The translations under genes and the position numbers were made by a program. From NCBI GenBank assembly GCA_034004515.1, contig JAVEWN010000006.1, positions 6,615 through 70,614 of the forward strand: 64,000 nt of DNA, written 5' to 3'. Below the pieces are notes generated by a model. That model was not told the DNA's origin, did not search any database, and saw only the letters and a program-made list of their open reading frames with translations. This stretch comes from Anaerolineales bacterium. GTDB taxonomy: Bacteria > Chloroflexota > Anaerolineae > Anaerolineales > Villigracilaceae. Every line of letters begins with the position of its first letter. The stretch's first letter is position 1. Shown here in pieces: positions 3,298-50,209 of this stretch.

Positions 3298-4377
3298 ATG
3301 GCATCCAATCCAAACAGCGCGCGCCAGATCACGTGGGACTTTGGCACAGCGTATGAATTTTTCATCAGCTTGCAAGTGCTCCATAATCCCGAATATTATG
3401 GGGTGCGGGCCTCCTGGGCTGCCGGGGTCCGTTCACGCATCCCGGCGACTGAGCGCAAACTGCTCGAAGAAATCATGCCGTTCGTCGCGCCGCCTCTGGA
3501 TTGGATTTATGGCCTGCCCCAACCCAAAGATGCTTTAAGCGCGCTCTACAGCCTGCGCCAAATCCCCGCGGAGAAGCGTCTTGAGCAGGTTTTCATGGCC
3601 GAAGAACACCCGGAAGATGAATATTTCAGCCTGCTTCAGAAAATTTCTCGAAAATCCAGTTGGGATCAGGCCGATTTACAAGCCATCCGCAAAATGATGG
3701 GCAAAAAAGAAAAGGTCAAATATAACGACGAAAGCATCAGCCGTTTTCTGGAATGGTGGGTGCGGCCCGCAGAATTAGGCGAAGGCTACTTGAGCGCCCT
3801 GCAAGCCTACCAGCAGGCATTTTTTGAAGAAGAAGAACGGCGGGTGACGCCGGTCTTAAAAAATGGCCTGGAACACGCCCAAGAACTGGCCGCGAAATTA
3901 AGTACCCCGCAATTGCTGACGGAGCTTAGCCAGGGGGTACAATTTGCCGAAAACATTCTTGAAAAAGATTTGATTTTAATTCCGGCCTATTGGATCACGC
4001 CGCTGGTCATGTACCGCAATTTGGGCGAGCAAAAAACATTGATCCTGTTTGGCGCGCGCCCGGCCAATATGGCAGATATCCCCGGCGAGTTGGTTCCAGA
4101 TGATTTGCTGCGCAAGCTGAAAGCGCTGGCGGATCCGACCCGTCTTAAAATCCTGCGTTATCTTTCCAACGAAGAGTTGATGCCGTCTGAATTGGCTCGG
4201 CGGCTGCACCTGCGCGCGCCCACCGTTACCCACCACCTGAATGAACTGCGCCTGGCGGGTCTGGTCAACCTGCGCCTGCAAGGGCAGGAAAAACGCTATA
4301 CCGCCCGCCGGGAAGCCCTCCAGAATTCGTTTGACTTACTGCGCAACTTTCTGACTGCCGCCTCTGACGAAACCTAA
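3298..4377 (+). CDS. ArsR/SmtB-family transcriptional regulator with a ~260-aa N-terminal extension
   Basis: C-terminal winged HTH LKALADPTRLKILRYLSNEELMPSELARRLHLRAPTVTHHLNELRLAGLV. The N-terminal two thirds have no motif I recognise. Confidence 0.85.
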   Translation: MASNPNSARQITWDFGTAYEFFISLQVLHNPEYYGVRASWAAGVRSRIPATERKLLEEIMPFVAPPLDWIYGLPQPKDALSALYSLRQIPAEKRLEQVFMAEEHPEDEYFSLLQKISRKSSWDQADLQAIRKMMGKKEKVKYNDESISRFLEWWVRPAELGEGYLSALQAYQQAFFEEEERRVTPVLKNGLEHAQELAAKLSTPQLLTELSQGVQFAENILEKDLILIPAYWITPLVMYRNLGEQKTLILFGARPANMADIPGELVPDDLLRKLKALADPTRLKILRYLSNEELMPSELARRLHLRAPTVTHHLNELRLAGLVNLRLQGQEKRYTARREALQNSFDLLRNFLTAASDET

Positions 4378-8293: not shown

Positions 8294-8364
8294 CTGGGGC
8301 GCCTGGATTCGAACCAAGATCCACGGCTCCAAAGGCCGGTGTGCTGCCATTGCACCACGCCCCA
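8294..8364 (-). tRNA. tRNA-Gln (anticodon TTG)
   Basis: Hand-folded cloverleaf: acceptor TGGGGCG/CGCCCCA, D stem GTGC/GCAC, anticodon stem CCGGC/GCCGT with loop CTTTGGA, T arm CTTGG-TTCGAAT-CCAGG, discriminator G. CCA is not encoded. Confidence 0.85.
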
Positions 8365-38424: not shown

Positions 38425-38928
38425 TTAGGCGGGCGGATTTTGCGCGAGGAAAGACTCAATGCAGGCCGCAAGACCGTCGACATCGTCCAGGTCAAACACG
38501 GGGACGCTTGTCTTGAGGGCGATATCGCTTGCATAGGCGATTAAATTCTCAGGAGCGCTGATTGGCTCAGAACTCAACCCGCTCCGTATAATTTCAATCG
38601 AAGGTTTGCCGGCATTCTTGTAACCTTCGACAAGGATTAAATCAACATCGGCAATCTCGCGGACGATTTCATCGAGGGTCAGCTCTTTTTTGAGAAGGCG
38701 ATAAGAGGCCAGCTTATCGGGCGCGGCAATGACGACATGTTCGCTGCCCGCCCGGGCATGCCGCCAGCTATCTTTTTGGGGCTGGTCAATTTCAAAGCCG
38801 GCGTGTGAGTGGTGTTTCACCGTCGCAATGTGATAGCCCCTGCGTTTTAGCTGCGGGATGAGCTTTTCGAGTAGGGTGGTCTTTCCAGCGCCAGACCTGG
38901 CAATGATGGTAATGACAGGAATCGACAT
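38425..38928 (-). CDS. mobB: Molybdopterin-guanine dinucleotide biosynthesis adapter protein MobB
   Basis: Start moved to the ATG at 38928 (GAGGAG upstream). Walker A ARSGAGKTTL, then VKHHSHAGFEID and LILVEGYK as in MobB. The longer ORF would overlap the upstream gene. Confidence 0.85.
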   Translation of the reverse strand: MSIPVITIIARSGAGKTTLLEKLIPQLKRRGYHIATVKHHSHAGFEIDQPQKDSWRHARAGSEHVVIAAPDKLASYRLLKKELTLDEIVREIADVDLILVEGYKNAGKPSIEIIRSGLSSEPISAPENLIAYASDIALKTSVPVFDLDDVDGLAACIESFLAQNPPA

Positions 38929-38936
38929 GAGTCTCC

Positions 38937-39671
38937 TCAGGGCAAGAACAGGATCAAGATCAAGAGAGAGGCCTCCCCAAGAATGAGCCATCCGTCCAGT
39001 GTGCCAATTTTGAGGGGCGTCGTGCGGCTTAGCTCGGGCCGAAAGGCGCGCGCTTCTGCCGCAAGCACAATCTGATCGGCGTGGCGCAGCGAATTGGTCA
39101 GAATCGTCAGCAACAACAATTGGATTGCGCGCCACCAATTGGCGCGCAATCCGCCGCGCATGCGCAGGCTGTGCCAGGCATTCGTGCTGGATTGGCGCAG
39201 GTCGGGCAGCAGGTTGGCCGCCACCCCGATTGAAAAACCCAACCCCTGCAATCCGCCGCGTTCGATCAAACCGGCCAGCTCGGTAATATTGACCGAACTC
39301 GAAAGGCCGTCCGCCGCCAGCAAAATGGCAACGGCCCGCAGGGTCATCTGGGCGCCATTCATCAAGGCAACCGAAGAAACGGGCAAGCCCAAAATCATCC
39401 AATCAGGGCCGCTTTCCGGGACGCCAAAAAACACGTTGACCAGAAACAAGCCGCCCAGGATGAGCAGCCAGCGCGGGCGGGCCAGGCGCTGCAAGGCAAA
39501 CGGATAAGCCGCCACCAGGACCACGAGCGTGAGCAGGGCCGGCACAAGCCCGCGTGAGAGCGGCGGCAGGAGAACCATGCCGATTGCCCACAGAAAAATG
39601 CTCAAATGAGCCAGGCTCCCAAAGCGGGGCCTGGCTTTTTGGGGTTCGCGCATGGATTGGGCCGCTTTCAT
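38937..39671 (-). CDS. ecfT: ECF transporter transmembrane (T) component, CbiQ/EcfT family
   Basis: Multi-pass membrane protein with the C-terminal Arg-containing coupling region (AWHSLRMRG...ADQIVLAAEARAF) typical of CbiQ/EcfT. Confidence 0.75.
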   Translation of the reverse strand: MKAAQSMREPQKARPRFGSLAHLSIFLWAIGMVLLPPLSRGLVPALLTLVVLVAAYPFALQRLARPRWLLILGGLFLVNVFFGVPESGPDWMILGLPVSSVALMNGAQMTLRAVAILLAADGLSSSVNITELAGLIERGGLQGLGFSIGVAANLLPDLRQSSTNAWHSLRMRGGLRANWWRAIQLLLLTILTNSLRHADQIVLAAEARAFRPELSRTTPLKIGTLDGWLILGEASLLILILFLP

Positions 39672-39673
39672 CC

Positions 39674-40114
39674 TTATGGGATTGCGATAATCTCTGTCAG
39701 CTGGCGCGGATTCAGCTTGCCGCCTTCTTTTGGCAGCACCATCCGAAAGGGTGCGTCTTCGGCGCTGAGCGGGCCATCGGCCTGGGCATAGGCCACAATC
39801 GTATCGGGGAGGTTATAAAGCGCGGCATCATAGTTGGCCGAAAAGCCGTCTGCGGCGACTGCTTTGACTGCGGAGAGCGCAGCGGGATCAATGCCGGCAT
39901 CCGCCAGCAAAACTGTCAACGGTACGCCGAGGTAGGTGATACCGTTGATCGTGGCTTGTGCATCCCCGAGCGCCTTGAGATCGGCGTTGGTGTAGGTTTT
40001 TTCAAGGGTGCCGTTCGACACTTTCAAAGCGTCGGCAGCGGGGGTCTGGGCGGCAGGCGCACAAGCTGCCAGGGCCACCATCAAAGCCAAACTCAAAAGT
40101 AAAAAGCGTTTCAT
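39674..40114 (-). CDS. Small lipoprotein with a molybdopterin-oxidoreductase-like (sulfite oxidase fold) domain
   Basis: Lipobox LMVALAAC. GVPLTVLLADAGI...AVAADGFSANY...GPLSAEDAPFRMVLPKEGGKLNPRQLTEIIAI resembles the Oxidored_molyb signature (GVPL..LL, DGY, G-P-x-R-L-V-V-P...K-W-L..I). Confidence 0.55.
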   Translation of the reverse strand: MKRFLLLSLALMVALAACAPAAQTPAADALKVSNGTLEKTYTNADLKALGDAQATINGITYLGVPLTVLLADAGIDPAALSAVKAVAADGFSANYDAALYNLPDTIVAYAQADGPLSAEDAPFRMVLPKEGGKLNPRQLTEIIAIP

Positions 40115-40136: not shown

Positions 40137-40745
40137 TTAGATTTCAAGCGGTTCGGGCAGGGTTGCGCCCAGTCTTATTTTTAAAACTTGTCCAAGTTTC
40201 CAGCCCAGCCAACCGCCCAGGCCGCCGACTGCCAGGTGCAAAATGACCAGGGCCAGCACAATCCACAAGGCGGCCTGAGCCGGCAGCCGAAACAGGCGGC
40301 TGCCCGTATCCAGCAAATCGAGCCAGACGACAAACAGGTTGCGGCCAAACAAAAGCGCGCCGGTCACGAAAGGCTGGACAACCGTCCATAAGGATGCGCC
40401 GGCGCTGGCAAAGATAAAAGCCAGCATGGACGGCTTCGGGAAGATATCCAGAATCAGTTCCGCAACCAGGGCTTCGGTCAAGATGCCGACCATGGGCCCA
40501 ATCAGGATATTGCCAATGCTGAATAATTTCAGCGTCATCGCGATCAGGCCGATGAAAATAGTGGAGCCGCGCCGCGGCACAAACAGACGGGCAATCGAGG
40601 CCACCATTACGCCAATCACCGAAAGCATCATGCCGCTCAAGGGCAAATGGATGGCGTGCAGCACCGAACCCAGGCTGATCTCTACCAGGCCCCACAACGC
40701 CCCAAATACAGCCAGGGTTACGAGTTCGCGGGTTGAAAATTTCAT
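40137..40745 (-). CDS. ECF transporter substrate-capture (S) component, specificity unknown
   Basis: Start set to the ATG at 40745 (MKFSTRELVTLAVFGALWGLVEI...). About 200 aa with six hydrophobic helices, positioned between the ECF ATPase and T genes. Confidence 0.6.
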   Translation of the reverse strand: MKFSTRELVTLAVFGALWGLVEISLGSVLHAIHLPLSGMMLSVIGVMVASIARLFVPRRGSTIFIGLIAMTLKLFSIGNILIGPMVGILTEALVAELILDIFPKPSMLAFIFASAGASLWTVVQPFVTGALLFGRNLFVVWLDLLDTGSRLFRLPAQAALWIVLALVILHLAVGGLGGWLGWKLGQVLKIRLGATLPEPLEI

Positions 40746-40765
40746 AATTGTCCTTTCCACTCAAA

Positions 40766-42274
40766 TTAATTTGCAGGATACCCGTCCGGCAGCGGGCTGG
40801 TTTTATCAGGATCAGGGCCGGAAGCGCGGCCCATCGAAACGGGATCAATTTTCCCGTCGAGCGTGATGCGGCCTTTCTCCATCAAAATAACACGGCGCGC
40901 GTAGCGATGCACCAATTTATAGTCATGGGTAATCAGCAAAATGGCAGCGCCCTGGGCGTTGAGCTGCATCAGGCAATCCATCAGTTGTTGCAGGTGACGC
41001 CAATCCTGCCCGAGGGTAGGCTCATCGAGAATGACCAGGGCGGGGCGCAGGGCAATGCAGGAGGCCAGGGCGGTGCGCTGCTGCTGCCCAATCGACAGCG
41101 AAAATGGGCGGCGGGCGCGCAGCAGGAGCAGGTCTGCGCTGGCAAGCGTCTGTTCGTGGATGTGCTCGTCAAAGCTGCGATAATTGCGCGGGCCGAACGA
41201 AACTTCTTCCTCGACCGAATCGGTAAAGAGCTGGTCGGCAGGGTTTTGAAATAGCAGGGCAATATCCAGGCCGGGGCGCGGGCGGGATGTGCCGCGCACG
41301 AGCGTTTTCCCGCTCAGGGGTTTGAGCAGTCCCGCCGCGGCCAGGGCCAGGGTCGATTTGCCCGTGCCATTGTTGCCAACCAGGGCGACAAACTCGCCGG
41401 GGAAAATTTTCAGATCGATGTCGTGGATGATGGCCTGACCGTTGTAGCCGGCGGTAATATTTCGGAGGTCAAGCAAGGGCGGCTGACCGGCGGGAGGCTG
41501 CCCGTTCGGGACCAGCAAGCGCGACCAGTCCGCGAGCGACTCCATCGTCGGACGGCGCAAACCAAACTTGCGGCGAATTTCGTGATCGCCGAGCACCTCT
41601 TCAAAATTGCCTTGAGCCACCTGCTGGCCTTCGTCCAGCACCAGCACTTTGTCTGCAATCCGGCGCACCTCGGCCAGGCGATGTTCGATCAGCACGATTG
41701 TCAGGCCAAATTGACGGCGCAGGTTTTCGAGGGCCGCGATGACACTTTGGGTACCCGGCACATCCAGCGAGGCGGTCGGTTCATCCAGCACCAGCACCTG
41801 GGGACGCATGGCCAGGGCGGCCGCGATAGCGATCCGCTGAATCTGTCCGCCAGAGAGGTTGGCGGGCTTTTTATCGCGCAATTCGGTCAGCCCAAGCGCC
41901 TCGAGCGCCCAATTGACGCGGGCCGCAACTTCATCTTCTGGAAAGCCGAGGTTGCGCGGGCCAAAAGCAATTTCATCGTCCACGCGCAAGTGGAAAAGCT
42001 GGGCGCGCGGATTTTGGAAAACGACGCCGACCTTTTGCGAGATTTCTGCGAGAGGCGTGTGGAGGACATCCAGGCTGGCCACCGTCACCTGGCCCTCGAC
42101 CTGGGCCGGAATCGAATGGGGGATAATTCCCGTCAGGACACGCGCCAGGGTCGACTTGCCGCAGCCAGAAACGCCGGTCACAATCAGGCATTCAGCGGCC
42201 TTCAGGCTGAGCGAAACCTGCTGCAAAACCCGGCTGGGCCCGTACGAGACGGTTAAGTCAGAAACCTGGATCAT
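40766..42274 (-). CDS. Fused tandem ABC ATPase (EcfA1-EcfA2-like)
   Basis: Start moved to the ATG at 42274 (MIQVSDLTVSYG). Two Walker A motifs (GVSGCGKST, GNNGTGKST), two signatures (LSGGQIQR, LSIGQQQR) and two Walker B motifs (VLVLDEPT, LVILDEPT). Confidence 0.9.
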   Translation of the reverse strand: MIQVSDLTVSYGPSRVLQQVSLSLKAAECLIVTGVSGCGKSTLARVLTGIIPHSIPAQVEGQVTVASLDVLHTPLAEISQKVGVVFQNPRAQLFHLRVDDEIAFGPRNLGFPEDEVAARVNWALEALGLTELRDKKPANLSGGQIQRIAIAAALAMRPQVLVLDEPTASLDVPGTQSVIAALENLRRQFGLTIVLIEHRLAEVRRIADKVLVLDEGQQVAQGNFEEVLGDHEIRRKFGLRRPTMESLADWSRLLVPNGQPPAGQPPLLDLRNITAGYNGQAIIHDIDLKIFPGEFVALVGNNGTGKSTLALAAAGLLKPLSGKTLVRGTSRPRPGLDIALLFQNPADQLFTDSVEEEVSFGPRNYRSFDEHIHEQTLASADLLLLRARRPFSLSIGQQQRTALASCIALRPALVILDEPTLGQDWRHLQQLMDCLMQLNAQGAAILLITHDYKLVHRYARRVILMEKGRITLDGKIDPVSMGRASGPDPDKTSPLPDGYPAN

Positions 42275-42413
42275 GCCGCGGCCTGTGGGCCGCTGCGCCT
42301 GCCCATTCGAAGGCCCAAGACCTGGTGCGGGCACAGATGCGGATGAATTGCCGCGCTTTTTTGCAAGAAATCTTGTAAAGTTGTCACCTTTGCCTGACTT
42401 TCAAGTAAAGCGA

Positions 42414-42446
42414 TTAAAAAACTCGCCCGGCGGGAACCAGGCGAGT
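42414..42446 (-). terminator. Intrinsic terminator inside the 5' leader of the ECF operon (putative expression platform)
   Basis: Minus strand: ACTCGCCTGG-TTCCCG-CCGGGCGAGT (10-bp stem with one G-U pair) followed by TTTTTTAAT. Lies about 140 nt upstream of the start codon. Confidence 0.6.
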
Positions 42447-42459
42447 TTTGAGGCCGTTG

Positions 42460-42605
42460 CAGGGTCTCAGCTCCTTTCCAAGTCGATCCCATTTGCGGTG
42501 AGACTTCGGGAGGCCGCCCTGTTTCCGGGGAAACCCTTGCCCTGCGCGCAGGGCTGTCCAGTCTGCCATGACTTTCGTTTTAGACAGAAAAGATCGGAGT
42601 GATTT
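42460..42605 (-). ncRNA. Structured leader RNA; candidate Moco/Tuco riboswitch aptamer
   Basis: The minus-strand leader contains, in order, ACUCCGAUC, the hairpins GCCCUG-CGCG-CAGGGC and GUUUCC-GG-GGAAAC, GGCCUCCCGAAG, and UGGAAAGGAGC enclosed by a GUCUCA/UGAGAC helix. These strings match my recollection of the Moco motif core. Not verified with a covariance model. Confidence 0.45.
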
Positions 42606-42725
42606 TGGGGACAGGTTCTTTTGAACTCGTCCCAATTTGATGATACTGAACTTTGCGTTATTTCACATCATGATTTTGGATGGTTTTTCTTATTACCCGA
42701 AAGAGTGAAGCCGGAGCCGGGGGAT

Positions 42726-43936: not shown

Positions 43937-45259
43937 TTATATATCCGATAAACGAAAATCTTTAGGGTAGGTCAGGTCAAGTTTGAGTTCCCGCAGGTAG
44001 GTTTCCCCGCCACGCTCCTCGAGGACGTTAGTCGATATACCCACCTCGATATCGAGTTTTTTCAACATCCTGATCTTGCTGACATGAAAAACAAGGCTGC
44101 CGGGCTTGTCACCGGCCCTGTAATCGCGATAGCCATTCTTTTGGAAAGCCGCCTTTGCGATTTCGGCGTCTTTGCCAAAGACCTTGGCCGCCTTCAAGAA
44201 GTAGTCGCGGCGTGAAAAGTATAGCACATTCATTTTAACGGGCTTCAGATCCTGCTGATAAATCTGGCCGGTGTGTTTGTTTTCGAGCGAGCAGTAATGG
44301 ACGCCCAGTTGCAGGCCTTGCTCCAAAGCAAACTCGATCAGGTCGAGGCAGGCCTGCTCACTGCCGGCCACAGGCAGCCCGCCGGCATACCAGTAGTTGT
44401 ACAGCACCCGGAAAGGCCGGGCTTTGATCAGATAGCCGCGCGCGCGGTATTCCTGGGCGTTGTGGAGCGGGAAACAAAATTCGAGCAAGTTGATTCCGAA
44501 GACGCCCAAACGCTCCAGTTCAAGCAAAATTTCCTGCATGGCCTCCCGCGAATCGGGTAAAACCGGCATCTCGACCATGACGTTCGGGATATACTCACGC
44601 GCCAGAGCGATCTGGTCGAAGGTGTGCTGGCGCGCGGTGGGCGTATCTTCAACCCGAATGCTGAAACGGATTTCATCCATGCCGGCCTCTTTGAAGGCCT
44701 GCAAGGTCTCACGCTCCAGCTGATCGCCGCAGGTGTAAAGACGCGTATAGGCTTTGGGAAAGTTCTGGCGGGCATGTTGGAAAAAGTTGATCGTTTCTTC
44801 TTTGTAAAGCAAGGGTTCACCGCCGGTCAGAGCCAAATGCTGGGCAGGCCCGCCGCTCTGTTGGAGGGCGTCCAGTTCGGCGGCTACGTCGCGTTTATGC
44901 TCGCGGTGATGCTGATAGTCTTCCTGGTTCGGGTTGAAACAGAAAAAACAATCGCGGTGACATTTAAGCGAGATAAAGAATGTTCTGCTGCCAATGCCGC
45001 GCTGGCAAGCCAGGCAACCGCCCGAGATGCGCTGGGTATAGACGCTTTTCGCATCATTGCGCACGATTGCGCCGCGTTTACCCAGATCAGACAGGCGCTG
45101 GGCCACCTGCTGGCTGTCATCCAGCGCTTCAACGTCGAGGCCCATCTGGCGCACCTGATCCATGAAATCCTGATAGATTTGGACGTACTGCCCGGCCTGT
45201 GACCTCAGTTCAGGGTTGCGGATGGAGGCCAGTGTACTCTCGTTGATCTCAATAATCAT
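43937..45259 (-). CDS. Radical SAM protein, unknown substrate
   Basis: CX3CX2C cluster CHRDCFFC at about residue 100 and a GGEPLL SAM-binding motif. Overlaps the upstream gene by 11 nt. Confidence 0.85.
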   Translation of the reverse strand: MIIEINESTLASIRNPELRSQAGQYVQIYQDFMDQVRQMGLDVEALDDSQQVAQRLSDLGKRGAIVRNDAKSVYTQRISGGCLACQRGIGSRTFFISLKCHRDCFFCFNPNQEDYQHHREHKRDVAAELDALQQSGGPAQHLALTGGEPLLYKEETINFFQHARQNFPKAYTRLYTCGDQLERETLQAFKEAGMDEIRFSIRVEDTPTARQHTFDQIALAREYIPNVMVEMPVLPDSREAMQEILLELERLGVFGINLLEFCFPLHNAQEYRARGYLIKARPFRVLYNYWYAGGLPVAGSEQACLDLIEFALEQGLQLGVHYCSLENKHTGQIYQQDLKPVKMNVLYFSRRDYFLKAAKVFGKDAEIAKAAFQKNGYRDYRAGDKPGSLVFHVSKIRMLKKLDIEVGISTNVLEERGGETYLRELKLDLTYPKDFRLSDI

Positions 45260-46451
45260 CGGGCTGCTCCACTGCTACAGGTTTGTTCCGTTTAAATCCG
45301 GGCGGCAGGACAGAACCAAACCGGTTTTCACGGCGGTATTGGCACAGCTCGCACAGCCGCGTGGCCCCGCGTTTTGCCGTCAGCGCGGCGCACTGCTCAC
45401 ATTTGATCAACTCACCCGCCTGGAGGACAGCGATGGCGTCCCCAAAAATATCCGCAAACTGGGGCGAACGGTCGAGGCGGATGGCATCCGGCGCGCAAAC
45501 GTGGACGCACAATCCGCAAGCCACGCAGTCCGGCGCGGCGAATTTTAGGGCGAAGGTGGTTTGGTCTTCATCTTTTTCAAACTGCAAAGCGCCGGTTGGG
45601 CAGGCCCGCGCGCAGGCGGCGCAGGCGGTGCAGGCTGCACTGACTTGGAGCGAGCCGAATCCAAACTCTCCCAGGTTTAAGTTTTCAGCCGCGCTGGGGG
45701 CAGGCAAATGGCCGAGTGCGTTGACGGTGCGTTTGTGGTTGCGCCCGGGGCGCGGGCCAGCCTGAGTCTGTCCATATTGCATGGCGCGCGCCATCGCAAC
45801 CTGACCCTGGCGGGCCAGCATCCGAAACAGGTCGCGCCGCGAGAGCGGCGGGTTGCTGGCGTTCCAGAGCGGGCGCTCGATTGCCTGGTCGAGGCCGGAG
45901 ACGCAGCGCAACGAGTCGCCGCGACCCCAGGCTGCAAGCAGCTCTTTGGCGCGCGCAACCTGGGCTTCGACTTCGGGCTGCAAAGCGGCCCATTTGCAAG
46001 TGGAACAGGCATCAGTCCGGGCCACGACCTGTTCGAGGCCGAGCGCGGCCAGGGCCAGGTAAGTCCCGCTCCCCAGCCCGGCGAGACAGCCTCGAACCTG
46101 GATGCCCACGCTCGTTTGGGCGATGCCGGCCTCGCAAGCAGGATTCAACTCACAAAGCAGTTCGAGGGTCTGATCTTCCAGGTGGGTGACAGCGTTCAGA
46201 AGCGGCGTGACCGCATCGTCCGCGCTGTACGCGCCGACCGGGCAGACCGTCAGGCAGGCCAAACAGCCCTCGCATTTTTTCGGGTCGAGGCTTGGCGGTT
46301 GGCCGGGCGTAATCGCGCCGACCGGGCAGATATTAAAACATGCCGCGCACTCTGAATGCTGGTCACGCGTATGCAGGCAGCGTTCAGCATCCAAAATGAC
46401 TTGCGAACGGTCAAGTGAGGCAAACCGTTCGGCAGCATCGAGCAGACTCAT
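45249..46451 (-). CDS. Multi-cluster 4Fe-4S ferredoxin-domain protein (about 400 aa)
   Basis: Start moved to the ATG at 46451 (ATGA overlap with torD-like). Motifs CAACFNICPVG, CEGCLACLTVCPVG, CTACAACARACPTG and CVACGLCVHVCAPD, plus extra Cys pairs. Confidence 0.8.
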   Translation of the reverse strand: MSLLDAAERFASLDRSQVILDAERCLHTRDQHSECAACFNICPVGAITPGQPPSLDPKKCEGCLACLTVCPVGAYSADDAVTPLLNAVTHLEDQTLELLCELNPACEAGIAQTSVGIQVRGCLAGLGSGTYLALAALGLEQVVARTDACSTCKWAALQPEVEAQVARAKELLAAWGRGDSLRCVSGLDQAIERPLWNASNPPLSRRDLFRMLARQGQVAMARAMQYGQTQAGPRPGRNHKRTVNALGHLPAPSAAENLNLGEFGFGSLQVSAACTACAACARACPTGALQFEKDEDQTTFALKFAAPDCVACGLCVHVCAPDAIRLDRSPQFADIFGDAIAVLQAGELIKCEQCAALTAKRGATRLCELCQYRRENRFGSVLPPGFKRNKPVAVEQPDDY

Positions 46452-47152
46452 AGCGTGGCTACCTTCGGCAGGGGCACTTGCAGCATCTGGGCCGCGGCCA
46501 ACAGCGCGCCATGCGCCAGATGGGCCATTCCGCGATAGAAATCGGTCGAGGCGTGCTGCTTGGCCAGGGTCGCCCAAGCCGGCCCCCAGCGCAGGAGATG
46601 CTCCAAGAGAAAATCACGCTGAGCTTGCAGGACATCGTCCAGCGATTGCTGATCTGCCTGTTCGATTGCCCGCAAGCCGCGCGAGGCAAGGTGAGACACA
46701 AAAAGCAGTTCCAAACCGATGTGATCGTCTGGTTCCTTGTTAATTTGTTCGATCTGCATCCCAAAACGCGCATACCAGTTGCGCACCTGAATGGTTTGCT
46801 CCTGGAAGACGAGCCGCTCGTTGTTGAAGTAAACCGATTCCCAGGGAACCGCGGGCATGGAACCCAAGCCAATAAACAAGCGGGTATAGTCCATTCTCAG
46901 ATCATTAAATTTCTGGTCAGAAATGCCGCCGGCCTGTTCGTCCGCCCACTTTTGGAGAATTTCCAAGCCGCGCACGATTTCGATCTGGGCTGCGCCAAAC
47001 GGCGATTCGCTAAAGACCTCGTCGCTGACCAATTGATTCAGCCATTCACGGTCTGGCTCCTGGTAGAGCGCTCTGCCGAGCAAGCTGAATAGTAATACTT
47101 CTCCGACAAGTGCTGCCGTTAAGTCGTCTGTTAAGATCATTTTATTGTTCAT
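46448..47152 (-). CDS. TorD/DmsD-family molybdoenzyme maturation chaperone
   Basis: DYTRLFIG...PWESVY...DHIGLELLF pattern typical of the TorD/DmsD family. Confidence 0.8.
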   Translation of the reverse strand: MNNKMILTDDLTAALVGEVLLFSLLGRALYQEPDREWLNQLVSDEVFSESPFGAAQIEIVRGLEILQKWADEQAGGISDQKFNDLRMDYTRLFIGLGSMPAVPWESVYFNNERLVFQEQTIQVRNWYARFGMQIEQINKEPDDHIGLELLFVSHLASRGLRAIEQADQQSLDDVLQAQRDFLLEHLLRWGPAWATLAKQHASTDFYRGMAHLAHGALLAAAQMLQVPLPKVATL

Positions 47153-47164
47153 TGCGTCTCCAAT

Positions 47165-50140
47165 TTAATTCTGGCGGATTTTGAAGCGCCGCCAGGCTAA
47201 GTATAGGCCTCTGATTAAGAATGCTGCAATAACAATCAGCACCACTATATACGTAACGAAGGTCACAGCTTGGGCAATGTTAATTCCAATTTGGGCCAGG
47301 CGGTCACGGATTTGGGCCGGGAGGGAGGGTTCCCATTTGGCTGGCAAGAGGGTTTCATCCCCGCGTGGAAGCGACACAACCAGCGTTCCCTCATGAGCGA
47401 CCGGGATGGGGAGATTCTGTTCGGAAAGGAAAACCATTTCTCCGGCTCTGACTGGCACTTCCTGCCCGTCCCGCGTCCGAATGAGGGCTTCTCCCTCGAA
47501 CAAATACAACCAACCGCCCCGCGCCGGGTGATATTCCAAAGCAAAGGAACCGCGCGTTAGCGTGATCTGTTTGCCCGCCACGCGGAAATTGAGTGCTTCG
47601 GCCTTTTGGTTCTGGCCCCAGACCCAGCCGGTTGCCAGGCTGCGAATCCCCAGCGATTCTTCGGAGATCGTCTCAGGCGGTAGGGTGATGTTTCCATCTC
47701 CCCAGGGCAGGAGCCTGGTTTCTGGCTGGCGAACCAGTGCAAAGTCGATCTTCTGGGCCGGCCCGTCCGCCAGGTCCACCACCCGGGCCTGGCTGTAATA
47801 ACCGGGCGCGTTGGCAATCAGGGTGGCTTTTAGCGGGTCGAGGCCAAAGATGCGATACTCCCCGTTAAGCGGATTAACGGGGGAGGCCGGGTCTGAGGCG
47901 GCTGTCGCCCAGCCAAAGGGCAGCGAGACTCCATCCTGGCCGGACAAGCGCCCGGCAGCCCAGGCGTTGCCAGTCTTCTGGATCTCGATTGTGATCTCAG
48001 CTTGAGCATCTTTGGTCAGATCAACCTGGGAGGCGGCCGCCTGGTAGCCGCGTCTGTTCGCGGATGGATCCAGAAACAGCTGGTATTTACCGCTCGGCAG
48101 GTCGGCGAAGGTGAAATTTCCATTTTCCGCCAGCGTGGTGTGGGAGGTTCCATCCGGCAGATGGACAGCCCAGATCTCGAACGGTTCGAGCCGGTCGGGG
48201 CTGGTCAACTGTCCGCTGATCTGGCCCTGACTGGTGCGGACAAAGACTGTCACCGGATCGTGGCCGGCTGCGCCGGGCGCAAGCTCTACCACAACCGATT
48301 CGAGGCTCTCGTACAAATATCCATTCAGGGAAGTGGGCGGAACGCTGATCGTGTATTGGGTCGCGGCCTGGGAAAGGGCTTCGAGGGACAGCCGGGCAAT
48401 GCCGTTCGCGTCGCTGGTTTCGCCTGCAAATTGGTCGCGCCATTCATACAGGATGGCCGCCGCGCGCACAGAAAGCCCGGAAATGGGCTCGCCATTCTTG
48501 CTATCAAGCACGCGCACGTCCATTTCCAAATCCCTGCCCGTATCGACAGTAAACCAGCGTTCGTCCGAAGCCTGCCCGCCATTCGGAGAAGCAGCCGTGA
48601 TGAGAAGTTGAACCTGTCCATCTGGCAGGGAAGCCTGGCTTTTGAATTCCTCGTGACAGGAGGCGCAATCCGGGTCAGCAGCTTTGGCTCCGGCCACGAT
48701 CATGGCCCCCTCCGGGTTGATGGCAAGGCTGAAGGTAAATGCACCATCCGACTCTGGTTGGGTGAATAATTCGGCAGTCCGTTGCCCGCCCGACCAGATT
48801 TCCATTCTGACGGTAACTTCGTTTTGCGGGCCAGTATAAAATACGCGCCCAACCACAAATGCCGGAGAAAAATTGCGTCCGCTGCTATACAACGTTTCCC
48901 CATTGGTGGGGTAGTTGATCTGAACCGCGAGATTTTCAGACGAGATCGGAAGCCCGACCGGGTCGGCGGGTGGAAGATAGGTAATCGGAGATACCGCCTT
49001 GCTTGAGCGCGGGAAGAAGGGGCACCAGTTCATGCTGACGCCATTGACATGGCACGATTCGCAGCTCATTTGAATGACGCGCGGCGGGGCGCTCATCCCG
49101 ATTGGATGGTGACAGGCCCGACAGTCGCTGGGAGTATCTGCCTGCGGAAAATCTGCGGCGCTCGGGTTACTTAAATCCCACAGCCGGAGCGTGTTGTCGC
49201 TCGAACCCGAAGCGACGGTTTTTCCATCCGGGGCGAAGGCGACGCTGTAAACAAAATCCGTGTGTCCCACCAGGGTGCGCAGCAGGCGGCCATCAGCCGT
49301 GTCCCATAACTTGACGGTGGCATCGACAGACCCGCTCGCCAGGCTTTTGCCGTCGGGTGAGAAGGATAAACTCAGGACGCTGGCGCGATGGTCAGCAAGG
49401 AAATATTTTATCTGGCCCGAAGCAACATCCCATAAAATGACTTTGGTATCGAACGCGCCCGAAGCCAGCGTTTTGCCATCGGGCGAGAAGGCCAGCCCCC
49501 GCACCCAATCCTTGTGCCCCTTAAGCGTTTTGACCAAACTCCCGCTTGAAGCATTCAACAACTGGACGGTGGTATCCTGCAAGCCCACCGCGAGCAGCTC
49601 GTCATCCGGCGAGAACACCAAGACTCGCGCCCCAGGCGAACCGGCGATGGACAAGGCCTCGCTCCCGCTTTCAACGTTCCAAATCCGGATGATGTCATCA
49701 TCCGCAGCGGTCGCAAGCAAAGCGCCATCCGAAGAGAAGGCAATACTGCGCACCCAGCCGTTATGGGCGGCAATCGTTCGGATTTCCTTTTCGTCAGAAA
49801 GACGCCAAAAGCGGAGTGTGCCATCGAACAATCCCGCAGCGACGGTCTGTCCATCCGGGGAAAAAGCCACGCTGCGCGCCCAGACTGCGGTGCTAAAAAA
49901 ATGCGCCTGTGAGAATTGCTGTGTATCAAAAATGGAAACGCCCGCAGATCTGGCAACTGCCAGCCATTTGCCATCCGGGGAATAAGCGACCGAATTGGCG
50001 ATGTCGCGTCCGGCGCTGGAAAGAGTAATAACACGGCTGCCGCCATCCGGAGACAACTGGAAAGCGGTGGAAGGAGTCGGAAAGCAGAATGAAATCAGAA
50101 TAATAACTGAAAGGGTCAGTAAATAGCGTTTGAGAGCCAT
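47165..50140 (-). CDS. Fusion protein: signal/anchor, 7 WD40 repeats, three CxxCH heme motifs, Ig-like domains, a FecR-like domain, C-terminal TM helix
   Basis: Start moved to the ATG at 50140 (MALKRYLLTLSVIILISF). WD40 repeats are of the form GH.D.V.S.AFSPDGK.LASGS.D.T..LWD. CRACH is encoded at 49109-49123, CESCH at 49049-49063 and CASCH at 48653-48667. The FecR-like stretch is GKQITLTRGSFALEY...GEALIRTRDGQEVPVRAGEMVFL. The C-terminal helix is VTFVTYIVVLIVIAAFLI. Confidence 0.8.
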   Translation of the reverse strand: MALKRYLLTLSVIILISFCFPTPSTAFQLSPDGGSRVITLSSAGRDIANSVAYSPDGKWLAVARSAGVSIFDTQQFSQAHFFSTAVWARSVAFSPDGQTVAAGLFDGTLRFWRLSDEKEIRTIAAHNGWVRSIAFSSDGALLATAADDDIIRIWNVESGSEALSIAGSPGARVLVFSPDDELLAVGLQDTTVQLLNASSGSLVKTLKGHKDWVRGLAFSPDGKTLASGAFDTKVILWDVASGQIKYFLADHRASVLSLSFSPDGKSLASGSVDATVKLWDTADGRLLRTLVGHTDFVYSVAFAPDGKTVASGSSDNTLRLWDLSNPSAADFPQADTPSDCRACHHPIGMSAPPRVIQMSCESCHVNGVSMNWCPFFPRSSKAVSPITYLPPADPVGLPISSENLAVQINYPTNGETLYSSGRNFSPAFVVGRVFYTGPQNEVTVRMEIWSGGQRTAELFTQPESDGAFTFSLAINPEGAMIVAGAKAADPDCASCHEEFKSQASLPDGQVQLLITAASPNGGQASDERWFTVDTGRDLEMDVRVLDSKNGEPISGLSVRAAAILYEWRDQFAGETSDANGIARLSLEALSQAATQYTISVPPTSLNGYLYESLESVVVELAPGAAGHDPVTVFVRTSQGQISGQLTSPDRLEPFEIWAVHLPDGTSHTTLAENGNFTFADLPSGKYQLFLDPSANRRGYQAAASQVDLTKDAQAEITIEIQKTGNAWAAGRLSGQDGVSLPFGWATAASDPASPVNPLNGEYRIFGLDPLKATLIANAPGYYSQARVVDLADGPAQKIDFALVRQPETRLLPWGDGNITLPPETISEESLGIRSLATGWVWGQNQKAEALNFRVAGKQITLTRGSFALEYHPARGGWLYLFEGEALIRTRDGQEVPVRAGEMVFLSEQNLPIPVAHEGTLVVSLPRGDETLLPAKWEPSLPAQIRDRLAQIGINIAQAVTFVTYIVVLIVIAAFLIRGLYLAWRRFKIRQN

Positions 50141-50209
50141 GAATTGTCCTGATAAGGACAGGGGCGGATATAAATCCGCCCCTGTCCTGTGTAAAGAGCA
50201 AGCAGGCAA

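Follow-up and report, generated by a model that had tools for sequence, protein, structure and literature searches.

A Moco riboswitch in front of a candidate ECF importer operon for molybdenum cofactor metabolism in Anaerolineae

Background

The Moco RNA motif (RF01055), described in 2008 and exemplified by the leader of Escherichia coli moaA, is built of five stems around a CUCCGA / GCCUCCC / GGAAAGGAG core, with a GAAA tetraloop on P4, a receptor in P2 and a P3 hairpin, and it lies upstream of Moco-related genes, where it works as an OFF switch whose platform is a terminator or a ribosome-binding site (RBS) within P1 (PMC2408646). Expression platforms of the terminator type have already been described for Moco riboswitches, and for E. 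coli moaA it was proposed that P1 hides the Shine-Dalgarno sequence (Regulski et al. 2008, PMC2408646). The RNAs that lack P3 are the Tuco-associated ones, an assignment reported as a correlation (PMC2408646). The structural features, core and genomic position of the motif all recur in the RNA presented here, and the OFF logic is predicted to recur with them.

As for the genes behind this RNA, the closest described transporter is a group-I ECF importer for thiamine or HMP-related compounds. This system, YkoEDC of Bacillus subtilis, is under the control of a TPP riboswitch. The operon studied here has in common with it a fused double-domain ATPase, a dedicated T component, an S component of YkoE fold, and the placement of the whole module in one riboswitch-controlled operon. 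It differs in that the riboswitch is of the Moco and not of the TPP class, in that the S component is far diverged, and in that a gene for an extracytoplasmic lipoprotein is inserted between S and T. More generally, ECF vitamin transporters were first recognised through riboswitch regulons (PMC3766115).

The lipoprotein has a counterpart in PruR of Agrobacterium and other Proteobacteria (7kom, 7kp2, 7kos/7kou, 7rkb), a small, secreted protein with a truncated SUOX Moco-domain fold (PMC11194511). The periplasmic ligands of PruR are pterins, and the protein has no Mo-ligating cysteine; a PW motif replaces this residue, Tyr and Trp stack on the pterin, an Asn forms a hydrogen bond to it, and the pocket is reported to lack the length needed for Moco (PMC11194511). 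The same core fold is found in the molybdoenzymes of the sulfite oxidase family, such as SorA (2c9x), SoxC (2xts) and YedY/MsrP (1xdq). According to a recent review, how pterins pass bacterial membranes is unknown and an efflux system for pterins has yet to be identified (PMC13259868), while Moco is generally considered not to be taken up from outside, as stated in the abstract of PMC9026282. With pterin transport unexplained and Moco uptake doubted, an operon as described below becomes a concrete and cloneable candidate for the salvage of Moco or its precursors. It was found in a window of 64,000 nucleotides from an Anaerolineales bacterium, which is the whole stretch of DNA analysed here.

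Results

A full-length Moco aptamer in the leader of the operon

Between the end of the TatA-like ORF (42726) and the ATG of the ABC ATPase (42274) lies a gap of 451 nt, close to the 450 nt given in a first-pass annotation made from the sequence. The motifs ACUCCGAUC, GCCUCCCGAAG and UGGAAAGGAGC noted there are found on the minus strand in the same order, and the suggestion of a Moco motif is borne out as that annotation predicted: the Rfam covariance model of RF01055 matches 42454-42611 (-) with 54.6 bits (E 2.6e-10; gathering score 36), and the alignment runs end to end over model positions 1-135 of 135. A clade-specific covariance model scores the same aptamer at 134 bits, and the Rfam gathering score is also passed by 9 of 14 diverse relatives. 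With the Rfam models, no other riboswitch family exceeds its threshold anywhere in the window. The conserved core, namely CUCCGA, GCCUCCC(G) and GGAAAGGAG, is fully intact, and CUCCGA is present in 66 of the 70 homologous aptamers. The window aptamer is a Moco RNA motif, a member of the class described in 2008 and not of a new one. As the RNA has a P3 stem and matches the Rfam model over the whole length, the other two options of the first-pass annotation, a Tuco RNA or a new class, are left unsupported, and by the criterion of PMC2408646 the presence and covariation of P3 would assign the RNA to the Moco type. Its host phylum, Chloroflexota (Anaerolineae), lies outside the phyla listed in the abstract of PMC2408646.

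Table 1. Features of the riboswitch leader and the operon (window coordinates)
Feature	Position	Strand	Basis or remark
Moco riboswitch aptamer RF01055, full length	42454..42611	-	Rfam match, clade model, covariation in 70 homologues
P1 5' strand CUCC, then conserved GA	42596..42599	-	pairs with GGAG 42471-42474
P2 with CUAA.../...CAUGG internal loop (tetraloop-receptor-like) and GAAA-capped tip	42557..42593	-	Rfam model, covariation
P3 hairpin GCCCUG-CGCG-CAGGGC, marker of the Moco type	42539..42554	-	Rfam model, covariation
P4 capped by GAAA tetraloop (42522-42525)	42511..42536	-	Rfam model, covariation
P5 with clade-specific inner extension	42478..42509	-	GUCUC 42504-42500 pairs with GGGAU 42490-42486
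P1 3' strand GGAG within AAAGGAG	42471..42474	-	Rfam model; no start codon after it in the window
Predicted intrinsic terminator AAAACUCGCCUGG(U) / (G)CCGGGCGAGUUUU + U6 (42421-42416)	42416..42449	-	fold energy, shuffles
Fused double ECF ATPase EcfA-A', 502 aa, YkoD-like architecture	40766..42274	-	two PF00005 domains; TIGR04520 and TIGR04521 above cutoffs
Candidate S component, multi-pass membrane protein	40137..40760	-	AlphaFold model, 7 helices
Lipoprotein, 146 aa, signal peptide and Cys18	39674..40114	-	minimal SUOX / PruR-like pterin-binding fold, predicted
EcfT (CbiQ-type) transmembrane coupling component	38937..39671	-	PF02361 42.9 bits, cutoff 25
MobB, molybdopterin-guanine dinucleotide biosynthesis adaptor, last gene of the operon	38425..38919	-	PF03205 144 bits; TIGR00176 142 bits, cutoff 76

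Conserved helices and their covariation

The aptamer precedes the orthologous operon, on the operon strand, at 65 of 80 related Chloroflexota (Anaerolineae) loci, and the clade covariance model recovers 70 copies, every one of them on the operon strand. Compensatory changes occur at 30 of the 43 base pairs in the 70 homologous aptamers; 90.4% of the pair cells are paired, as against 34-52% when the partners are slid, and the observed values of pairing and covariation are reached by none of 500 shuffles, figures that refer to an alignment fitted to our own covariance model. In an alignment by MAFFT only, P3 falls out of register and RNAalifold returns no P3, which was remedied by the covariance model and realignment. 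The comparison of orthologous leaders that had been proposed as a check gives the same aptamer with strong covariation.

The compensatory pairs lie in P2, P2b, P4 and inner P5 as well as in P3, while P1 and outer P5 are nearly invariant and hence uninformative. P1 has only four pairs, three of them invariant in the 70 sequences and the fourth being CG in 67, so that covariation speaks neither for nor against it. In P2 (helices 2 and 3), 12 of 13 pairs show compensatory changes, and the receptor-like loop reads CCUAA(A/G) on its 5' side in 46 of the 70 copies with (C/U)A(U/G/C)GG opposite, the window having UCUAAA / CAUGG. The hairpin GCCCUG-CGCG-CAGGGC drawn in the first-pass annotation (42554-42539) is real and corresponds to P3 of the Rfam model (helix 4), where all 6 pairs covary and 83.6% are paired. 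P4 (helix 5), with the conserved and covarying strands GGGUUUCCCCG-GAAA-CAGGGCGGCCU, has 7 of 11 pairs covarying and its GAAA tetraloop in 67 of the 70 aptamers. At P5 the window has 25 nt more than the Rfam model, and in the inner part (helix 7) all 5 pairs covary with 97.5% paired. Such an extended P5, and mimicry of the P1 5' strand by the terminator apex, set the clade apart from known RF01055 members.

Two helices that had been drawn for this leader were rejected on the Rfam alignment and covariation. The GUUUCC/GGAAAC hairpin, whose 2-nt loop is CC and not GG, gives way to P4 as the conserved helix; GUCUCA...UGAGAC is complementary in the window, but it is not conserved and gives way to P5 and P1, since GUCUC pairs with GGGAU and GGAG closes P1. 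The first reading of the leader holds in its gap, motifs, P3 and hairpin with U6, and fails in these two helices. For a conserved CUGUGCA box after P1, no consistent partner appeared among the P4 3' strand, the P3 and P5 loops or a local hairpin; the box holds the GUG start and a Gln codon of an NTPase ORF in the relatives.

Loss of the NTPase gene from the window

In most relatives, AAAGGAG doubles as the Shine-Dalgarno sequence, or RBS, of an extra first gene encoding this NTPase, so that P1 would there hide the Shine-Dalgarno sequence too. The window has lost the NTPase gene and retains the transcriptional arm only. When the window DNA is aligned with that of the relatives, about 430 nt are missing from the interior of their first gene and both of its ends are kept, the GUG start is mutated to CUG, and a tblastn search of the window leader finds no remnant of NTPase coding sequence. 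With no start codon within 20 nt of GGAG, occlusion of a Shine-Dalgarno sequence cannot act there. The aptamer stands directly before the ATPase gene in three other loci as well (L063, L065 and L072). The ORFs 42271-42492 and 42414-42635 (-) were dismissed as spurious, the first merely translating the aptamer and the hairpin. A single aptamer family may employ RBS occlusion, termination or both across closely related genomes.

A predicted terminator and a putative switching helix

A stable hairpin followed by U6 is located about 20 nt downstream of the aptamer, at the place where the first-pass annotation had put a terminator (42449-42416). Its stem of 13-14 bp has a folding energy of -23.6 kcal/mol (z = -3.7), matched by none of 200 shuffles, and the GC-rich stem stands directly before the U run, as is required of an intrinsic terminator, which the hairpin is predicted to be. 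A generic terminator scan of the window did not call it, probably because the A-U extension consumes part of the U run. Most related loci have a homologous hairpin; the U tract is weak in the nearest relatives of the window. The window hairpin, extended by A4/U4 and followed by U6, is stronger than the hairpins of relatives. A scan of the window gives no sigma-70-like promoter in the interval from tatA to the aptamer.

The loop region of the terminator contains GUUCC (42437-42433), which is complementary to GGAGC of the P1 3' strand. A 5-mer fully complementary to GGAGN is present in the terminator apex of 46 of 65 leaders; in shuffles the average is 10.6 leaders and the highest count 17. In 57 of these 65, the nucleotide that follows GGAG is able to pair with the loop nucleotide; pairing in P1 with the one 5' of CUCC is possible in only about 22. 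Where the hairpin is unrelated and lies in a true 5' UTR (GCUGUCUCU/GGAGACAGC), the UCUCU complement is located in the 5' arm of the terminator. The A:U to C:G switch in the putative anti-terminator helix occurs within one closely related subgroup only and may therefore be a single evolutionary event. In the window this helix has 5 bp including one G-U, against about -20 kcal/mol for the hairpin; being so short against a stable hairpin, it could work only kinetically.

We consider it probable that this Moco-sensing, P3-type RF01055 riboswitch is a transcriptional OFF switch before a five-gene ECF importer operon of Moco metabolism, and judged from the leader sequences such a switch is the likeliest mechanism. 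When Moco is plentiful, the bound aptamer would lock the short P1 (CUCC 42599-42596 with GGAG 42474-42471), the downstream hairpin would be free to form, and the polymerase would stop at U6, ahead of the ATPase gene that begins 140 nt further downstream. When Moco is scarce, P1 would stay open and the freed GGAGC could pair with GUUCC in the nascent terminator apex, by which closure of the hairpin would be delayed and the polymerase would read through.

An ECF transporter with a divergent S component

Downstream of the leader, EcfA domains, EcfT and an S component stand together in one operon, as expected of a dedicated (group I) ECF transporter, and the order of ATPase, S component, lipoprotein and EcfT genes is conserved in about 70 of 80 loci. 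The S component, with a likely start at the ATG at 40745 (MKFSTREL...), was identified by fold search only. The window copy belongs to no Pfam or NCBIfam family, its profile matches no PDB sequence, and against PF09819 it scores 11.5 bits, below the cutoff of 25.2, whereas 11 of 18 S components of relatives match this family (best E 1.2e-6). Its AlphaFold model (pLDDT 85.6) has as top PDB match the ECF S component 5edl (TM 0.61/0.63, probability 1.0) and also matches 4huq_S, by which the protein is modelled as a divergent relative of YkoE and not as a clear PF09819 member. A DmsA-like enzyme, which could in principle use Mo or W, neighbours the operon. In relatives, moaA is found nearby together with a ModA gene (fmdE-modA) under a second, P3-containing Moco riboswitch. 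At locus L020, mobA and moaA carry on the gene string after mobB, in keeping with an operon of Moco metabolism.

The known members of RF01055 control modABC, moa genes or a molybdoenzyme, and an ECF transporter under a Moco riboswitch is absent both from PMC2408646 and from the 2013 survey of riboswitch regulons (PMC3766115). Of the earlier remark that a terminator-coupled Moco aptamer before an ECF transporter would be an unusual regulon member, the part on the transporter stands and the part on the terminator does not, such platforms being known. Full-text literature searches returned no report that links a Moco riboswitch with an ECF transporter and, judged by title and abstract, nothing on uptake of the molybdenum cofactor by an ECF transporter; nor did the literature searched describe such an ECF-lipoprotein-MobB system.

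A lipoprotein with a PruR-like fold

The lipoprotein matches PF00174 with 30 bits over profile positions 56-159 of 169, and a 99%-identical copy is on record from five contigs. Its only Cys is the lipobox Cys18, so the Mo-ligating cysteine is absent. The model (pLDDT 87.6) has its best PDB matches, over the full length, in PruR (7kom, 7kp2, 7kos and 7rkb), 7rkb being the complex of PruR with neopterin. Like PruR, the protein is a predicted secreted, minimal SUOX fold without the Mo-coordinating cysteine, but sequence identity is only 15-22% and the protein is lipid-anchored. It has no Trp at all, so that the PW motif and the stacking Trp of PruR are missing; Tyr/Trp stacking of the PruR kind is accordingly not provided. 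It possesses an invariant N94-Y95, a candidate counterpart of N102/Y104 of PruR. By our reading of the alignment it is shorter than PruR because the whole cysteine hairpin is deleted. While PruR is partnered with the c-di-GMP enzyme DcpA, the neighbours of the lipoprotein are ECF components and Moco genes.

The segment FRMVLP...GK.N.R of the lipoprotein aligns with ARLVVP...G of SoxC. Unlike the enzymes of the sulfite oxidase family, the lipoprotein has only about 100 domain residues, without the cysteine-bearing hairpin and its ligand, it carries no dimerisation or heme domain, and its signal peptide is of the Sec/lipoprotein and not of the Tat type. A partial Moco domain lacking both the cysteine ligand and the extra domains argues that it is not an enzyme of that family.

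Discussion

Two other explanations bear on whether and how the window element regulates. The element might be a decaying relic, in which loss of the NTPase broke a switch based on Shine-Dalgarno occlusion and left an aptamer that regulates nothing; about 430 nt of the first gene are indeed missing and its GUG has become CUG. We regard this as highly improbable, as the score of the aptamer is still 54.6 bits and no core nucleotide is altered, the hairpin with its A4/U4 extension and U6 is stronger than in the relatives, the loci L063, L065 and L072 likewise place the aptamer directly before the ATPase gene, and the lipoprotein is on record in the nearly identical copy from five contigs. It is also unlikely, though less so, that the conserved hairpin encodes the NTPase N-terminus or stabilises the RNA rather than terminating transcription, regulation being purely translational. 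A frame passes through the hairpin in about 43 of the 70 leaders and encodes a conserved peptide (...SPDSLLAS...), so that its conservation in most relatives could partly act at the protein level, and several relatives have poor U tracts. Against this, no ORF uses the hairpin in the window, yet the hairpin is kept and followed by U6; L044, L052, L036, L032 and L031 have non-homologous hairpins with a stem and a U run in a true 5' UTR; and compensatory stem changes, read by eye, are seen in L028, L069 and L008. A transcriptional OFF switch stays the preferred reading. The RNA itself is an ordinary member of its class, and its value is that of a functional label: it assigns to Moco metabolism an ECF system that is conserved and unannotated, and the operon is the more novel part.

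On gene content, the operon most likely encodes an ECF-type importer with a substrate within Moco metabolism, for which two inorganic readings have to be weighed. Tungstoenzymes are commonly encoded by anaerobic Chloroflexota. The RNA could be a Tuco variant and the operon could serve tungsten, for example by taking up tungstate for enzymes with W-bis-PGD or for aldehyde oxidoreductases; RF01055 spans both variants and the neighbouring DmsA-like enzyme could use either metal. This is very unlikely, given that the window RNA possesses P3, a stem that covaries across the clade and is lacking in Tuco-associated RNAs (PMC2408646), and that relatives place a second P3-containing copy before fmdE-modA. 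A stronger candidate, still on the unlikely side, is a genuine riboswitch before an ECF system that imports molybdate or tungstate, with the lipoprotein as an accessory metal-capture protein like NikK or NikL. The latter two accompany Ni-type ECF systems, and metal-type ECF systems with additional extracytoplasmic components reportedly exist, as described by Rodionov and colleagues in 2006. The known transporters under Moco riboswitches also carry molybdate or tungstate (PMC3766115, PMC2408646). The S component, on the other hand, resembles the thiamine-type YkoE (5edl) and not CbiM or NikM, the lipoprotein fold is that of pterin/Moco pockets and not of ModA- or TupA-type oxyanion binders, and in the relatives a ModA gene is already controlled by a Moco riboswitch of its own.

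From fold and context, our preferred guess for the substrate is cPMP, molybdopterin or Moco, which the lipoprotein would capture outside and hand to the S component. We tentatively propose, as a possibility somewhat better placed than oxyanion import and yet short of probable, a dedicated uptake of molybdopterin-type pterins in which the PruR-like lipoprotein captures, the YkoE-like S component and ECF module import, and MobB (together with MobA in relatives) feeds bis-MGD enzymes. If true, the operon would provide a type of cofactor salvage for which no bacterial report was found, and an ECF transporter that relies for an organic substrate on a binding protein outside the cytoplasm; one operon component has a fold known for extracytoplasmic pterin binding.

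Several observations speak against pterin import. The relatives, with moaA and a riboswitched ModA gene, are not obvious Moco auxotrophs; the pocket of PruR is reported to be too short for Moco, and the lipoprotein has none of the Trp residues of PruR. Moco auxotrophy as an argument for salvage was rejected, because the relatives have moaA and modA nearby.

The Moco-class aptamer upstream of the ECF operon

On the minus strand, 451 nt lie between the end of the TatA-like ORF (42726) and the ATG of the ABC ATPase (42274), where the first-pass annotation had proposed a riboswitch of the Moco or Tuco type, or a new class, followed by a terminator. The Rfam scan finds the Moco RNA motif RF01055 at 54.6 bits (gathering score 36; E 2.6e-10), over the full model (positions 1-135 of 135), and the motifs listed in that annotation all occur on the minus strand in the order given. 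Only one other match in the whole 64-kb window reaches the Rfam gathering thresholds, a tRNA.

Helices were assigned from the Rfam alignment and our own covariation analysis (see the table). The previously noted hairpin GCCCUG-CGCG-CAGGGC is P3. Two other proposed helices do not hold. One, GUUUCC/GGAAAC, would have a loop of two nucleotides and is not a real aptamer helix: its GGAAAC spans the tip of P4, from the closing G on the 5' side through the GAAA tetraloop to the first C on the 3' side. The complementarity of GUCUCA/UGAGAC is confined to this window and is not the real pairing. By the criteria of Regulski et al., which ask for a GAAA tetraloop, its receptor in P2 and a P3 stem (PMC2408646), the aptamer is a canonical Moco-type, P3-containing representative; P3 is absent from 58 of their 176 representatives, and the P3-less ones correlate with tungsten cofactor genes (PMC2408646). 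We regard the assignment to the Moco class as nearly certain. As an RNA the element is textbook, a further representative of the known class, and terminator platforms for Moco RNAs were already described in 2008 (PMC2408646); the phylum Chloroflexota is absent from the list in the abstract of that original description.

Positions of the aptamer helices, the ECF operon and neighbouring genes in the window
Feature	Position	Strand	Remarks
RF01055 match	42454-42611	-	
P1	CUCC 42599-42596 / GGAG 42474-42471	-	4 bp, almost invariant
P2	42593-42557	-	internal loop CUAA.../...CAUGG; tip capped by GAAA
P3	42554-42539	-	
P4	42536-42511	-	GAAA tetraloop
P5	42509-42478	-	25-nt insertion relative to the Rfam model, making inner stem GUCUC/GGGAU
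Fused double ECF ATPase	40766-42274	-	TIGR04520/04521 above cutoff
Multi-pass membrane protein (candidate S component)	40137-40760	-	no Pfam or NCBIfam family
Lipoprotein, 146 aa	39674-40114	-	PF00174, fold match
EcfT	38937-39671	-	PF02361
MobB	38425-38919	-	domain families
Upstream genes: DmsABC-type Tat-exported molybdoenzyme, TorD-type chaperone, polyferredoxin, radical SAM protein, TatC-TatA		-	
Radical SAM protein (440 aa) and polyferredoxin (442 aa)	43937-46577	-	between TorD-like chaperone and TatC
1014-aa protein	47165-50209	-	WD40 repeats and CarboxypepD_reg domain
tRNA	8294-8364	-	

Conservation and covariation

The downstream membrane protein has 962 homologs, the top ones all from Anaerolineales or Chloroflexota metagenome bins, and a scan of species-representative genomes gave 80 related loci. 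Of 14 diverse loci, 9 passed the RF01055 gathering threshold, and a clade covariance model built from seven aptamers of related loci detected 70 copies across the window and 65 loci, every one of which precedes the operon in the same orientation. Upstream sequence is missing for most of the 15 loci without a match; at E < 0.01 the clade model found no Moco aptamer in L040, L049, L050 and L077 (perhaps also L074), despite an operon and enough upstream sequence.

In the alignment 90.4% of pair cells are paired, versus 34-52% with partners slid by 1-3 columns, percentages that are somewhat inflated since the alignment was fitted to the clade model. Changes on both sides occur in 30 of 43 pairs, with covariation in P2, P2b, P3, P4 and inner P5, and the observed values were reached by none of 500 shuffles. 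Because this covariation includes distinct pair types per position, which cannot arise from model fitting, the element is a genuine Moco-class RNA with a conserved structure.

In one locus, L031, tandem Moco aptamers (3514-3663 and 3786-3939) precede a single operon, the first being followed by its own hairpin and U run. L014 (10629-10784), L020 (10613-10768) and L023 (11000-11155) have a second Moco riboswitch some kilobases past the ECF operon, where it precedes an FmdE-family gene and modA; mobB-mobA-moaA lie before it in L020. Four loci with the same operon (L037, L049, L057, L077) are labelled as Zixibacteria, Actinomycetota and Eisenbacteria bins, which could reflect horizontal transfer or mis-binned Chloroflexota contigs.

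Expression platform

The putative terminator noted earlier directly after the aptamer is present as a structure: the hairpin there has -23.6 kcal/mol (z = -3.7; none of 200 shuffles as stable) and is followed by U6. A generic terminator scan of the window did not call it, probably because the A-U extension of the hairpin uses part of the U run. Regulation in the window would likely be of the OFF type, by termination.

In most loci a hairpin directly follows P1, usually in the form (A)CUCGCCAG-N8-CUGGCGAG(U) and then a U-rich stretch. In 46 of 65 leaders the apex contains a 5-mer that can pair at every position with GGAGN, the P1 3' strand (shuffle mean 10.6, maximum 17). The nucleotide that follows GGAG is matched by the one in the loop in 57 of 65, but by the nucleotide 5' of CUCC in P1 in only about 22 of 65. 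In a minority of leaders the hairpin, GCUGUCUCU/GGAGACAGC, is unrelated and lies in a true 5' UTR, with a UCUCU complement in the terminator 5' arm and GGAGA duplicated in the 3' arm, a layout that reads as a classical terminator/anti-terminator. On the basis of this layout and the apex complementarity, we propose that when the aptamer is empty a downstream sequence resembling the P1 5' strand would compete for GGAG. The helix is short, and the switch from A:U to C:G is limited to one subgroup; we put the chance of a loop-mimic anti-terminator slightly below even.

An NTPase gene lost from the window

The first gene after the aptamer is NTPase_1 (PF03266) in 64 relatives. About 43 of 70 leaders have a GUG, AUG or UUG 3-13 nt past AAAGGAG that opens a frame through the hairpin into the P-loop (consensus VQxxxxSPDSLLASFxS...LILVTGPSGSGKT), so that in relatives the P1 3' strand doubles as a Shine-Dalgarno sequence, as proposed for E. 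coli moaA (PMC2408646). The conserved CUGUGCA box marks where this frame starts, and part of the sequence conservation of the hairpin may be at the protein level. In L005 (3362-3922) and at homologous positions in about 43 leaders, the terminator-like hairpin CUCGCCAG...CUGGCGAG falls inside NTPase codons ~6-16, with SP(D/G)(S/A)LLAS as the dual-use peptide and AAAGGAG of the aptamer as Shine-Dalgarno sequence.

Alignment of window positions 42275-42415 (minus strand) with L011, L008, L003 and L016 shows that about 430 nt are missing from the interior of the NTPase gene. Its two ends are kept, one with the hairpin and the other with the ATGA in which its stop overlaps the ATPase start. The start GUG of relatives is CUG in the window, and the hairpin is longer by A4/U4 before U6. 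With these changes only the transcriptional arm would be able to act in the window. In L063, L065 and L072 the aptamer likewise stands directly before the ATPase.

The transporter and its possible substrate

About 70 of 80 loci keep the order ATPase, S component, lipoprotein, EcfT. Relatives have additional genes: a TehB-like methyltransferase, absent from the window, between the ATPase and S genes (28 loci), and FmdE, MobB, MobA and MoaA after EcfT. PF09819 (YkoE-type S component) is matched by 11 of 18 relatives of the membrane protein, whose AlphaFold model (pLDDT 85.6) best matches the ECF S component 5edl (TM 0.61/0.63), and also 4huq_S. Five operon variants have no lipoprotein gene; their S components are most divergent in L077, L079 and L080 (39-43% identity to that of the window) and 56-58% identical in L061 and L067.

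The lipoprotein matches PF00174 at profile positions 56-159 alone, and its sole cysteine is the lipobox Cys18. Its model (pLDDT 87.6, > 94 in the mature part) best matches PruR proteins over their full length (7kom, TM 0.69/0.74; 7kp2; 7kos; 7rkb, a neopterin complex); SUOX enzymes match over only part of theirs. PruR, which binds small pterins, is periplasmic and has the SUOX fold but no Mo-ligating cysteine (PMC11194511). The lipoprotein family is small: of 1.84 billion representatives, 281 clusters match at E <= 0.001 and 23 at 1e-30. Some distant relatives of the domain are found in multi-repeat proteins (P0283, 1556 aa; P0307, 1234 aa; P0309, 1020 aa), a single one of which can have as many as 10 matching stretches.

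The transporter is controlled by a Moco riboswitch and co-transcribed with mobB, to which relatives add mobA and moaA, and this assigns it to Moco metabolism. The 2008 paper and a 2013 regulon survey name only Moco biosynthesis genes, Mo/W transporters and molybdoenzymes (PMC2408646, PMC3766115), and full-text literature searches found no link between Moco riboswitches and ECF transporters, so that an ECF transporter is, as far as checked, a new member of the regulon. Regarding the substrate, the organic-micronutrient type of the S component and the pterin-pocket fold of the lipoprotein favour a pterin-type compound, e.g. cPMP, molybdopterin or Moco, which we hold only tentatively, at clearly less than an even chance. 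Against pterin import stand the presence in relatives of moaA close by and of a modA controlled by a second Moco riboswitch, the PruR pocket, described as too short for Moco (PMC11194511), and the Trp residues of PruR, which the lipoprotein lacks; import of an oxyanion by the operon is a serious rival. How pterins cross bacterial membranes is unknown according to a 2026 review (PMC13259868). The riboswitch directs attention to a candidate system, open to testing, by which bacteria may take up a Moco-type pterin.

In the upstream neighbourhood, the radical SAM/polyferredoxin pair, neither with an NCBIfam equivalog above cutoff, precedes the riboswitch in about 25-30 related loci, a large minority. 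The gene of the 1014-aa protein is inserted between the DmsC-like anchor and TorD-like chaperone genes of the molybdoenzyme cluster.
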